A program made the translations under genes and the position numbers. The notes under the pieces are model-generated. The model saw only the letters and a list, made by a program, of their open reading frames with translations. It was not told where the DNA came from and ran no database searches. Below are positions 20,093 through 22,651 of a stretch of DNA of 42,322 bases, piece after piece. Numbering within the stretch: position 1 is the stretch's first letter; each line of letters opens with the position of its first letter. This stretch comes from a virus, in UHGV virus genome UHGV-0136707. One strand, given 5' to 3'.

Positions 20093-20794
20093 TTATTCTG
20101 ATTCTCGCTCAAAAAACGAGCTAATGAGGGGAAGCCAATCCTCTGACACTTCGCGAGGCCGCGGTTTGCCGTGGAAAAAGATTATTCGGCAGTCCTTTGG
20201 TAATGTCCCATTCCCCCTGGAGTAACGCGCGCTCGCATATTTTGAACCAGGTTCCACAACATCGGCCTTGTAACTTACAAACCATCCTGGATACAGATCC
20301 TGAAATGCTGGTGTATCATCACCCATAACCTTCCGCAAAAACCCCTGATCACCCCAGCATTCAGTAGTAACACAACGAGCAATCCAACCTTCCGGATCTT
20401 GCCAGAATGCACTCCAGATATGCGCTTTTACACTATTTGGTATCCACAGGGCACCGCTACCACGATATTGTGGATGGTAAAAATCCCTAAGCATGGTGAA
20501 ACTGGTTGGTGGGTTCTCAAGGATTGGGCGTATATCACCGGCAATAACCGTGTCCAAATCCAGATAGAACAGATCATCGGTTATATCCGGTCGGAACAAC
20601 TCGATTTTCGCCCACCAGCCACGGCACTTTTGCCACTGGTTGATCAATGGGATAACTTTGACGCCAGGTACATGTAAACGCTTCAGGTCTGTCAGGCAAA
20701 TAATTTCATAGCCTTTTGGCAGTTGATTAACCAGCCACTGCACATCGGAAGCGTTATAGTCACCACCAGAGCGAAGAACTAAAGCAATCTTCAT
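20093..20794 (-). CDS. putative GT-A-like glycosyltransferase
   Basis: 233-aa ORF with a hydrophobic strand followed by DxD ([12 protein letters not shown]). Family assignment is tentative. Confidence 0.5.
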
Positions 20795-21483
20795 GCTGCA
20801 CCATCACCTTTCACTTTCATCAATGTCAGGTTTCCGCAAAATACGGCACCAGTGTCGATATAATGCTGATTCCAGAATGTCTTCGGGCTTTTCACCGGAG
20901 TGTGACCAAAGATAAAACGATCTGCGCCCGAAATTTCGCCACCAATATCATCCATCGAATCACTGATACGCTCGCGTGCCCAGACAACGTTGAAAAGCGG
21001 CACCTCCTTACCGAATTGATATTCATTATCCGGATAGTCGGCATGGGCTATAACGATAGTTTCTTGCCCGGTGTTCAACTCAATGATATAGGGCAGACGT
21101 CTTACCAGCTCCACCAGCGCCCTGGCTAATATTTCCTGATCAGTGTCCAACATGAAGAACCATTGTCCACCATTCATTAGCCAGTTATTCACGTTGCCAT
21201 CAGGACTTAACGCATCGAGCATCAACCGCTCATGGTTCCCCATCACTGCCCTGAACCAGGGCATCTGCAATAGTTCCAGACATTCGACATTTTCAGTACC
21301 GCGATCGATAAGGTCGCCGACCGATATCAGTAAATCCTGCGCCGGGTCAAAATCCACACGATGGAGTTCGGACATCAGTCTGGTGTAGCAACCATGCAGA
21401 TCACCAACAACCCAGACATTCCTGTATTTGGTACCGTCGATACGGTGATAAATTGTGGGTGCCATCATGTATTCTTCAGCCAT
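20791..21483 (-). CDS. ppp: Ser/Thr protein phosphatase (lambda-PPase-like metallophosphoesterase)
   Basis: 230-aa ORF with the calcineurin-like motifs GDLHG, GDLIDRG and GNHE. P1 encodes a phosphatase of this type (ppp). Confidence 0.85.
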
Positions 21484-22091
21484 TCTTTAAGAGTCATCTG
21501 CGGAATACCTCCCATTTTCCCGCATGAAACAACGTCAATCTGTTCACGCGCAGACTGGAATAACAAAGGCAGGTGACTTAGATTTTTTGGCGTGCCGCCG
21601 GAGTGAACGCGTGGTTCTTGTGTAGCATCAACGCCCACCAGGGCTACATGTTTGAATCCGATATGGAAGGCCAGGTTCAGAGCACCATATGCACTATTGC
21701 CGCTGGCAATTTCATTCTCATCTTCGCAAAGGCCGAAATGTGCGGACCAGCGCCATGCCCACCACTCGGGAGAATTCGTATTTTTTGGCTCCGTGCCGCG
21801 TTCAGCCACACGACGGAAGCACAGAACGCCATCTATGACTTCACGTTCTTTAACATCGGGTAGTGCCATGCAATAACAAACACCACGGCGACGGCGGCCA
21901 CGACCAACGCGCCGCATATTGTCTGGCGATGGATCAAGTGTGAAAAAATAAGAAGCGCGGTTAAGCCAGTCGATGGCCCCATTGACCGCTATAATCGGCA
22001 CTCCGCGCGGCGCAACAAAGTTTGCGGCGCTTGGGCCACTGCCGACGATAATAACGCGATCACTGCCTCTAAATTTATTCTTGGGAAACAT
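21465..22091 (-). CDS. MptE/DUF115-like protein (paralog 1)
   Basis: 208-aa ORF with N-terminal IVGSGPS motif. Overlaps its paralog by ~100 nt. Confidence 0.6.
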
Positions 22092-22651
22092 TGAATTGCA
22101 CTGCTCCTACTTGCATTCAAAATATGTAAATCTGCGTGTTTTTTGCGGGTATCCAGGAACTGCTGTTGCCATTTTGAAATAGACACCTGCGTTGGATTCC
22201 GTAGTGCTTGAGGATGCGCGCCATGCCAATGAAGGCCGTTTTGCAGAGAACAGTCATAGCCGACTAATACAACTACTTCAGCCCCTGATTCAGCCGCCAG
22301 ACTGATAGCCTGCGCGCCGCTATTTACCCCTTCCGCCGGTCCACAATATCGCCTGTACTCCAACGAAAATGATTTCGCCGCCGCCAGGTTGGCTGTCACT
22401 TTGCGGAACCTCCCTCCCGGTATGGTGGAACCGTATTGCTTCCACCATGACAAATCACCGGCGTATAAGGCATAAATGTCATCGAACATCTGCCAGGAAT
22501 TGTTAACCGCGATGATTGAACAGCCAGTTTTTTCTATAGCAGCACAGTCCTCACGAGTGAGTGACGGACCGCTACCGACACAAAAAACAGTCCTAGTCGC
22601 CCTGGGTGGTATGTTCATTCTCAGCTGCAAATTCAGCCTCCAGGCGAGCAT
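21989..22651 (-). CDS. MptE/DUF115-like protein (paralog 2)
   Basis: 220-aa ORF with N-terminal CVGSGPSL motif. Confidence 0.6.
   Translation of the reverse strand: MLAWRLNLQLRMNIPPRATRTVFCVGSGPSLTREDCAAIEKTGCSIIAVNNSWQMFDDIYALYAGDLSWWKQYGSTIPGGRFRKVTANLAAAKSFSLEYRRYCGPAEGVNSGAQAISLAAESGAEVVVLVGYDCSLQNGLHWHGAHPQALRNPTQVSISKWQQQFLDTRKKHADLHILNASRSSAIQCFPRINLEAVIALLSSAVAQAPQTLLRRAECRL

Follow-up and report, generated by a model that had tools for sequence, protein, structure and literature searches.

The pmgO-pmgP-pmgQ genes of P1-like phage-plasmids as a candidate glycosylation module

What do the genes pmgO, pmgP, ppp and pmgQ of phage P1 encode, and on which molecules would their products act? 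P1 is among the most used phages in genetics, and its genes of this group have been named 'putative morphogenetic function' for twenty years. The question is raised here by the UHGV virus genome UHGV-0136707, a stretch of 42,322 nucleotides (nt; the window) from a P1-like phage-plasmid. By DNA comparison, positions 20093–22651 are 98.3% identical to phage P1 (NC_005856, 79592–82150) and 97.3% identical to P7. The four open reading frames of this segment, which the original prediction had described as consecutive minus-strand genes, lie exactly in that arrangement (Table 1) and are the annotated P1 genes pmgO, pmgP, ppp and pmgQ, known in P7 as hdmB, hdmC, ppp and hdmD. Given this identity to the P1 genes and the dozens to hundreds of homologs of each, they are real genes. 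The best explanation of the evidence as a whole, to which we give about an even chance, is that pmgO, pmgP and pmgQ, probably together with the separately encoded gene dbn, specify a soluble cytoplasmic glycosylation module.

A glycosyltransferase-like annotation is not new, as RefSeq and PHROGs already give 'glycosyltransferase' and 'alpha-2,3-sialyltransferase'. The RefSeq labels for pmgO, pmgP, ppp and pmgQ are 'alpha-2,3-sialyltransferase', 'morphogenetic protein', 'metallophosphoesterase' and 'glycosyltransferase', respectively. The genes themselves were already known; new here are the module of pmgO, pmgP and pmgQ (with dbn), the fusions between its members, its repeated occurrence next to head genes and its link to adhesin genes. 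In a genome-wide CRISPR interference screen of P1, pmgO, pmgP, ppp, pmgQ and dbn were all non-essential (PMC10695390), as they were in an earlier single-gene deletion study according to a table in the same paper. In the deletion study, 24 of 29 mutants had neither a plaquing defect nor a change in antirestriction (PMC9024508). No paper addressing the function of pmgO, pmgP, pmgQ or dbn was found in the literature searched.

Enzyme families of the module proteins

The products of pmgO and pmgP match the Pfam family PF01973 (MptE-like/DUF115, which includes the Maf core) with 23.4 and 20.9 bits, respectively, below the gathering threshold of 34.6. Many of their homologs carry precomputed PF01973 matches; 49 of 57 PmgP homologs match the family at E<=0.01, and one of them (P0338) reaches 44.1 bits, above the threshold. 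Profile-profile comparison of the PmgO and PmgP families (97.9% probability, E value 3.4e-13, 166 columns, 25% identity) marks the two as ancient paralogs. Sequence and profile searches of both proteins against PDB sequences returned nothing significant, and only the fold comparison was informative. Its ranking is led by the Maf flagellin glycosyltransferase 5mu5 (score 13.8 for PmgO and 12.8 for PmgP) and MptE 8sd5 (11.5 and 12.8), with the alpha-2,3-sialyltransferase Cst-I of Campylobacter jejuni (2p56; 10.8 and 10.7) behind them, and then thiamine pyrophosphokinases and eukaryotic GT29 sialyltransferases. Both proteins therefore have the three-dimensional fold of the Maf/MptE core, and the MptE-like/Maf (DUF115) assignment of the original prediction holds at the level of the fold. 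The (I/C)VGSGPS motif cited for it is present in both paralogs (FCVGSGPS and IIVGSGPS) and conserved, the G, P and S being invariant or nearly so. An alignment of a natural PmgO-PmgP fusion with both families, in which the PmgO homologs fall on the PmgP half of the fusion, shows that the two families have G, P, N, D, S, G and D as invariant positions in common. Activity of CbMaf requires D272, S334 and D357; the putative counterparts, all invariant, are D66, S111 and D133 in PmgO and D53, S133 and D155 in PmgP, with an S-to-D spacing of 22 as opposed to 23 in CbMaf. The three-domain architecture of Maf (632 residues) is absent, as PmgO and PmgP, with 220 and 208 residues, consist of the core domain only. 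None of the module proteins contains a hydrophobic segment of transmembrane strength.

The matching Pfam family is named after MptE, and PmgO and PmgP might thus be MptE- or thiamine-pyrophosphokinase-like kinases acting on a small molecule or a hydroxymethyl group rather than glycosyltransferases. We consider this quite improbable. PmgO aligns over 163 residues with Maf and over 126 with MptE, and the invariant D...S...D appears to be spaced like the residues required for Maf activity. Moreover, a GT8-type gene is a constant neighbour of these genes, at times fused to them, and GT-B enzymes and sugar-type S-adenosylmethionine (SAM) methyltransferases are linked to them as well.

A Pfam search with PmgQ gave no match, including none to GT8 (PF01501), which 12 of 75 PmgQ homologs match weakly (best 0.0054). 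The profile of these 75 homologs nevertheless identifies GT8 structures, namely the Skp1 alpha-galactosyltransferase 6mw5 (E value 1.1e-6) and glycogenin (E value 1.8e-5), over about 130 residues running through the DxD, the GDQG (148–150) and the C-terminal His motif. D79 and D81 are invariant in the 75 homologs, while at least 90% of them keep H208, G209 and P211. PmgQ is thus homologous to solved GT8 enzymes, including the DxD and the C-terminal His metal ligands, and what had been called a DxD-containing GT-A-like protein can be narrowed by profile to a GT-A of GT8 type. It also matches PHROG 1962, 'glycosyltransferase' (1.3e-127).

The probable fourth enzyme of the proposed module is not adjacent. 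Dbn (from 'downstream of ban') is encoded 6 kb from the other members, across tail and baseplate genes, and matches Glycos_transf_1 in its C-terminal half only (25.0 bits against a cut-off of 26.4; E value 1.5e-5). Its ortholog in RCS47 is labelled 'glycosyltransferase family 4 protein' in RefSeq; a sequence search of the PDB with Dbn gave no match. In the lytic coliphage EP_H11, the gene between the PmgP and PmgQ homologs is 48% identical (E value 1e-105) to P1 Dbn, and because of this position Dbn is probably the fourth member. Dbn homologs also lie about 3 kb from a pair of PmgQ and PmgP homologs in Serratia plymuthica and Buttiauxella, and all 22 Dbn-encoding records in a collection of 50,697 phage records also encode PmgP. 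P1 would then probably carry a split system of four enzymes, PmgO, PmgP, PmgQ and Dbn, of which the original prediction missed the last.

Ppp, in turn, had been included as a lambda-phosphatase-like metallophosphoesterase, an assignment that is borne out. It matches Metallophos (PF00149) with 59.1 bits against a cut-off of 21.5, and its translation displays GDLHG, GDLIDRG and GNHE, corresponding to the PPP-family motifs GDxHG, GDxxDRG and GNHE. It also matches PHROG 246, 'NinI-like' (1.8e-113). The equivalog models of PrpA and PrpB are not reached (NF008516, 278.9 bits against 326, corresponding to NCBIfam PRK11439, 279 against 326; NF007425, 240.3 against 332). The gene ppp lies between pmgP and pmgQ only in the P1 lineage, and the modules found elsewhere have none. 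In phage D6, the DNA match to the window is restricted to the ppp segment, which sits among small genes of lambdoid type; no pmgO, pmgP or pmgQ is annotated near D6 ppp, and no D6 record was among the PmgP protein matches at the sensitivity used. On this phyletic pattern we rejected Ppp as a core member, and the four-gene module as originally drawn does not stand: Ppp is an insertion of the P1 lineage in a variable slot.

Conservation, gene contexts and proposed function

Hidden Markov models of the PmgO, PmgP and PmgQ families (O, P and Q below) were run on loci (L numbers) fetched from genomes and metagenomes. A scan of viral contigs with the PmgP profile gave 80 near-identical P1-like loci and no diversity, which came instead from genome contigs and from contigs encoding homologs. 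At E<=1e-3, 631 of 1.84 billion cluster representatives belong to the PmgP family. Genes for O, P and Q occur together in a Citrobacter rodentium prophage, in a distant P1-like element (L009), in a metagenomic phage contig (L003) and in coliphage EP_H11. They also do so in Pseudomonas, Alloalcanivorax, Zhongshania, Commensalibacter, Brevundimonas, Methylophilaceae, Serratia, Buttiauxella and Pseudescherichia, as well as in Sinomicrobium of the Bacteroidota. Of 21 genome loci that could be evaluated, 19 have a Q-family gene within about 3 kb, and one is also present in L003, L007, L009, L115, L116, L117, L119 and L121. O, P and Q are therefore one conserved unit across Proteobacteria and Bacteroidota. 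Natural fusions join the same proteins as O-P (P0051), P-Q (P0298 and P0366), Q-P (P0378), Q-P-methyltransferase (P0346) and methyltransferase-P (P0376), and suggest that PmgO and PmgP form a heterodimer. The slot between P and Q is variable, being occupied by Ppp in P1 and by the GT-B Dbn homolog in EP_H11. L101, L107 and L119 have a SAM methyltransferase there, and L102 has a small DxD protein ('X192'). The occupants other than Ppp suggest that the module has a glycan-building character.

The X192 proteins form a recurrent neighbour family of about 192 residues with an LDVDS motif (L003, 9757–10335; L115, 10254–10835; also L100, L102 and L103). The family has no Pfam, PHROG or NCBIfam match above threshold (Nucleotid_trans, E value 0.0048; hhalign against PmgQ, 4.5%).

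The position of the module bears on its target. Head-gene contexts were assigned in three results from direct Pfam labels and in the remainder by similarity to the proteins so labelled. In at least 12 unrelated prophages (L008, L101, L104, L105, L109–L115 and L117) the module lies inside the head-gene cluster, with a capsid or portal gene on one side and genes for the head-tail adaptor or the tail on the other. In Pseudomonas (L115), Zhongshania (L101) and Methylophilaceae (L104), the gene just before it is that of the major capsid protein. In L008, L105, L109–L112 and L114 it is preceded by the portal gene and a gene for a collagen-like protein, and in L115 and L117 it is followed by genes for the head-tail adaptor or for head completion. 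In L004, L007, L102 and L119 it opens the late structural operon, between the lysis cassette and the terminase gene, and in L003 it directly follows the lysis genes. In P1, pmgQ is followed by pmgR, deletion of which leaves heads and tails unjoined (PMC9024508), and the operon is located downstream of the late promoter LPpmgL. Because the module is usually found among head genes, a virion protein is its probable target; of the targets first proposed (virion protein, host surface or DNA), gene context favours this one.

The collagen-like protein is encoded between the portal gene and the pmgO homolog in many alpha- and gammaproteobacterial prophages (L008, 3170–4132; L109–L112 and L114). Its G-X-Y triplets, up to 40 in number and for the most part G-[KR]-D-G, are accompanied by a conserved C-terminal domain, and the protein may be a head fibre. 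It is not an obvious acceptor, as its G-[KR]-D-G repeats hold few Ser or Thr residues.

A second context is chromosomal. In five genomes of Pseudescherichia or related bacteria, the O, P and Q genes are interleaved with genes for inverse autotransporters of the intimin/invasin type (IAT_beta, Big_1 and Invasin_D3). In Serratia, a PmgO homolog adjoins Big_1 genes while a Q-P pair lies between holin and lysozyme genes. The chromosomal, non-phage copies (L118, 1241–14359; L095–L099; L116, 1674–4115) look like a phage-derived module captured for adhesin modification. Taken together, we infer that these contexts fit a cytoplasmic glycosylation of structural or surface proteins, and fit modification of lipopolysaccharide (LPS) or DNA less well.

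A role in the cell envelope would place the module on the LPS core, which is the P1 receptor. PmgO and PmgP would add an extra 3-deoxy-D-manno-oct-2-ulosonic acid (Kdo) in the manner of WaaZ, and PmgQ (GT8) and Dbn (GT4) would add hexoses, altering the receptor in lytic growth so as to keep progeny from being trapped on debris or to exclude superinfection. Weak WaaZ signals (TIGR04437, E value 0.11, and a faint PF27901 match), the relationship of PmgQ to GT8, a family of LPS-core glucosyl- and galactosyltransferases, and a KdsB in L009 would all agree with this, and LPS-core transferases are likewise soluble or peripheral cytoplasmic enzymes. We nevertheless regard it as unlikely, as the WaaZ match amounts to 11.8 bits against a cut-off of 200 and the best GT8 matches of PmgQ are protein-directed (Skp1 galactosyltransferase and glycogenin). 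Moreover, LPS-conversion genes are usually found at prophage ends, whereas the module is in head-gene clusters or late operons in most lineages, and its chromosomal copies accompany adhesin genes and not waa genes.

Alternatively, the module might glycosylate cytoplasmic proteins of the host, for host takeover or counter-defence. The P1 operon and dbn are C1-controlled, so early expression is possible; the EP_H11 module is in a non-structural region; and P1 can do without the genes on laboratory K-12 hosts, which is common for accessory or counter-defence genes. This reading is, in our judgement, distinctly unlikely. The place of the module among the head genes of at least 12 prophage lineages agrees with late expression together with the structural proteins, no PADLOC-DB model matches PmgN, PmgO, PmgP, Ppp, PmgQ, Dbn or PmgM, and the association with adhesin genes in chromosomes would be left unexplained.

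Glycosylation of phage DNA or of a nucleotide, as a protection from restriction, appears highly improbable. Ordinary restriction enzymes cut P1 DNA, the methyltransferases found with the module belong to the small-molecule type and not to the DNA methyltransferases, and no hydroxymethylase, TET/JBP or DNA-base-modifying enzyme was present among the neighbours scanned with Pfam and NCBIfam. Antirestriction activity was unchanged in the deletions (PMC9024508). What speaks for it is that GT42/GT73-type transferases are listed beside phage thymidine dioxygenases (bioRxiv 10.1101/2025.08.14.668559), that dbn adjoins ban, and that the EP_H11 module is near a ligase gene.

If a protein is glycosylated, the sugar can be considered next. 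The transferases that neighbour PmgO and PmgP in fold use ulosonic acids activated with cytidine monophosphate (CMP), the named hosts of the module are all LPS producers, and no nonulosonic-acid biosynthesis genes were seen among the module neighbours scanned. To our knowledge, CMP-Kdo is the only CMP-activated ulosonic acid donor in E. coli K-12. In the distant P1-like element L009/L010, a true KdsB (TIGR00466, 270 bits against a cut-off of 155) is encoded 3.5 kb downstream, adjoining a Pap-like HAD phosphatase. The WaaZ model TIGR04437 matches PmgP at the level cited above and does not match PmgO, and a faint match to PF27901 (WaaZ_KDO_III) is found on the O-P fusion P0051, whose C-terminal half is PmgP-like. 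From one KdsB lineage and a weak WaaZ similarity, Kdo would be the most economical guess. Maf enzymes in E. coli make Ser/Thr-O-Kdo from host CMP-Kdo (bioRxiv 10.1101/2020.06.03.131540; PMC11339370).

With regard to the phosphatase, P1 Pap (17949–18455, minus strand), annotated as 'acid phosphatase', is a HAD phosphatase of PNKP type (PF25109). In L009 (12658–13892) its homolog comes directly after the genuine kdsB, for CMP-Kdo synthetase, and an unassigned gene of 271 codons. Pap is possibly also involved in sugar-nucleotide metabolism.

In the proposed pathway, the module would be expressed once C1 repression is lifted. PmgO and PmgP, two minimal Maf/sialyltransferase-like enzymes working as a pair, would most likely transfer a CMP-activated ulosonic acid, possibly Kdo. 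PmgQ, as a retaining, Mn2+/DxD-dependent GT8-like enzyme, and Dbn, as a GT-B enzyme, would add hexose-type sugars from uridine diphosphate- or other nucleoside diphosphate-sugars. The acceptor would most likely be a protein (virion proteins in the phages, invasin-type adhesins for the chromosomal copies) and the product an O-linked glycan. Ppp would be an independent lambda-type phosphatase inserted into the variable slot. Fold, paralogy, conservation as a module, fusions and gene contexts are established, whereas glycosyltransferase activity, the identity of donor and acceptor and a possible effect on the virion are part of what this scheme predicts.

Several points weigh against the proposed glycosylation of proteins. 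The fold of PmgO and PmgP is common to ATP-dependent pyrophosphokinases (MptE and thiamine pyrophosphokinase), and PmgP scores MptE equal to Maf. The WaaZ signal is far under threshold, and KdsB occurs in one lineage only. The module of EP_H11, a lytic phage, is among small non-structural genes near a DNA ligase gene, and dbn of P1 is co-located with the helicase gene ban. Deletion or knockdown of each gene gives no plaque phenotype, and no glycan on P1 virions appears in the P1 virion proteome paper or the literature searched.

In its most specific form, the proposal is that tailed phages of Gram-negative hosts, P1 and many others, would put a Kdo-containing O-glycan on one of their virion proteins (the capsid, a head fibre or the connector) by means of a PmgO/PmgP heterodimer, PmgQ, Dbn and host CMP-Kdo. 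This is tentative and, with all its parts, rather unlikely. If true, it would be the first natural Ser/Thr-O-Kdo protein glycosylation and the first virion glycosylation system in a classical coliphage, and enterobacterial chromosomes would have taken up the same module to glycosylate invasin-type adhesins. If the module glycosylates virions, whatever the sugar, phages of Gram-negative bacteria would join the actinobacteriophages as phages with glycosylated virions. There might then be effects on antibody recognition, stability and adsorption of P1-like phage-plasmids, which spread resistance genes. The enzymes would also provide a compact, portable set for O-glycosylation in the E. coli cytoplasm, relevant to glyco-engineering, and the invasin-linked copies would point to a new adhesin glycosylation system. 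Should the module act on LPS or host proteins instead, it would still be a widespread, unstudied accessory system of phages. Since deletion mutants exist, direct testing is possible, and the module, its fusions and its gene contexts together make a case for a putative widespread glycosylation system for virion or surface proteins in phages of Gram-negative bacteria.

Layout and control of the operon

The genes are tightly packed (Table 1). Along the operon, pmgP and ppp overlap by 19 nt as annotated and ppp and pmgQ by 4 nt (ATGA), and the overlap of about 100 nt noted earlier between the paralogs is 103 nt. A second in-frame ATG of ppp at 21468 would give an ATGA overlap with the pmgP stop; as it fits the start of lambda phosphatase better, the annotated ppp start may be too long. 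The same may hold for pmgO, for which Met12 at 22618 is favoured because most homologs begin 4–17 residues before the conserved motif. The small ORF pmgN overlaps the start of pmgO and has a GGGAGAG Shine-Dalgarno sequence 5 nt upstream. Among the loci searched, pmgN homologs were found only in L091 and L092, which are near-identical P1-like loci.

Table 1. Positions of the operon genes, dbn and regulatory sites in the window
Feature	Position	Strand	Description
pmgO	21989..22651	-	minimal DUF115/Maf-like (sialyltransferase-like) enzyme, 220 aa
pmgP	21465..22091	-	second DUF115/Maf-like enzyme, 208 aa, ancient paralog of PmgO
ppp	20791..21483	-	lambda-type Ser/Thr protein phosphatase, slot between pmgP and pmgQ
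pmgQ	20093..20794	-	GT8/glycogenin-like retaining GT-A glycosyltransferase, 233 aa
dbn	28586..29584	-	GT-B-like (GT4-like) glycosyltransferase, probable fourth member, encoded separately
pmgN	22593..22748	-	small operon leader ORF, 51 aa from GTG (P1 annotation)
pmgO/pmgP overlap	21989..22091	-	103 nt
Op86b/Op86a operator pair and PpmgR	20026..20091	.	next transcription unit, pmgR-pmgS
Oppp/Op83	22792..22808	+	single C1 operator upstream of operon (P1 annotation)
PpmgN	22821..22847	-	predicted sigma-70 operon promoter inside 3' end of pmgM; identical to P1

The overlap raises the question of how PmgP is translated. The codons for its N-terminus, and for the GSGPS motif within it, are read in the -1 frame from the part of pmgO that specifies the variable C-terminal tail. 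L007 and L009 likewise have an overlap of about 100 nt, and overlaps of about 50–145 nt, by ORF coordinates, are present in L093, L094 and L101; L105 probably has the same arrangement, without a visible ATG. The PmgO proteins of the overlap-bearing lineages are only about 40–50% identical, which indicates that the overlap is old. A recent duplication, one of the two explanations first offered for it, was rejected: the O and P families are about 25% identical and separate across phyla, and the overlap of about 100 nt is kept where PmgO is only 41–50% identical.

The other explanation, a programmed -1 ribosomal frameshift yielding a PmgO-PmgP fusion protein, agrees with the reading frame of pmgP and with two X_XXY_YYZ heptamers of P1, T_TTC_CCA and A_AAT_TTA, in the pmgO frame just past the pmgP ATG. 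It also agrees with the natural in-frame O-P fusion P0051, which joins the domains at the same point as the overlap, a coincidence that argues that PmgO and PmgP act as a pair. However, no slippery heptamer is found in the overlaps of L007 and L094, and no slippery site is conserved. The start codons are conserved, with an ATG 10–12 codons ahead of the GSGPS motif in nearly all lineages, and pmgP of P1 has its own ATG with a TAGGAG Shine-Dalgarno sequence 12 nt upstream. Independent initiation of pmgP accounts for the data and is the simpler reading. A conserved frameshift is set aside, and a frameshift fusion, unsupported by these data, is kept as a very unlikely rival.

Upstream of the operon, the P1 annotation gives a single C1 operator, Oppp/Op83. 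It differs from P1 by one base and has four mismatches to the consensus, so that it fell outside a scan allowing three. Further upstream, Op82 (23699–23715) and the late promoter LPpmgL precede pmgL. The inverted pair of C1-operator-like sites that had been placed upstream does exist (20026–20042, plus strand; 20075–20091, minus strand), but it lies just 3' of the pmgQ stop and is thus downstream. It is the Op86a/b pair of P1, identical in the window, which overlaps and controls the promoter PpmgR of the following unit. Repressor control of the operon is therefore plausible by way of Op83, and not by way of the sites originally cited.

Immediately upstream, pmgM (22815–23393, minus strand) encodes a nuclease of VRR-NUC type, with PHROG matches to Holliday-junction resolvases/endonucleases and a Pfam VRR_NUC match just under threshold; it is no obvious morphogenetic protein despite its name. 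Elsewhere in the window, positions 14000–17940 are unlike the pmgT-pmgV region of P1. This part is a mosaic with two Ead/Ea22-like genes (14399–14974 and 15272–15961, the first also with DUF551) and matches Stx-converting lambdoid phages and some P1-like variants at 96–99%, which indicates exchange between the P1-like phage-plasmid and lambdoid phages.

Comparison with known systems

For PmgO and PmgP, one of the closest known systems is Maf, the motility accessory factor, which O-glycosylates flagellin with nonulosonic acids (PF01973/DUF115; 5mu5). Maf proteins have about 600 residues, with N- and C-terminal domains thought to recognise flagellin, whereas PmgO and PmgP, under the Pfam threshold and with about 200 residues, are cores without these domains. 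They also differ from Maf in forming an obligate-looking pair linked to GT8 and GT-B enzymes, and in being encoded in phage head-gene clusters and not in flagellar loci. WaaZ, the Kdo III transferase (GT73; TIGR04437/PF27901), bears a faint likeness to PmgP at the N-terminal nucleotide-binding motif, and both are predicted to use a CMP-ulosonic acid donor. At 11.8 bits against 200, PmgP is not an ortholog, and its genomic context is unrelated to the waa loci.

PmgQ shares the DxD, the GDQG and the C-terminal metal-ligand motif with GT8 enzymes such as glycogenin, the Skp1 alpha-galactosyltransferase Gat1 and LPS-core enzymes of the WaaJ/WaaO type, but is shorter (233 residues) and lacks a Pfam GT8 match of its own. 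Ppp has the full set of PPP-family motifs in common with lambda protein phosphatase (NinI/ORF221), to which it is 64% identical according to the P1 record, and with E. coli PrpA and PrpB. It differs from the lambda enzyme in being encoded in a glycosyltransferase operon and not in the nin region, and from PrpA and PrpB in falling under the NCBIfam equivalog cut-offs.

The nearest parallel for the module as a whole is virion glycosylation in mycobacteriophages, in which glycosyltransferase genes lie beside capsid genes and O-glycans are carried by the capsid and tail tube. There, too, soluble phage glycosyltransferases are encoded in the structural region, are dispensable for plaques and have a predicted or known role in decorating the virion. 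The enzymes belong to other families, with no DUF115 pair, and the hosts of the P1-like module are Gram-negative. Glycosylation has been demonstrated in the mycobacteriophages, whereas for the P1-like module it is the predicted counterpart.

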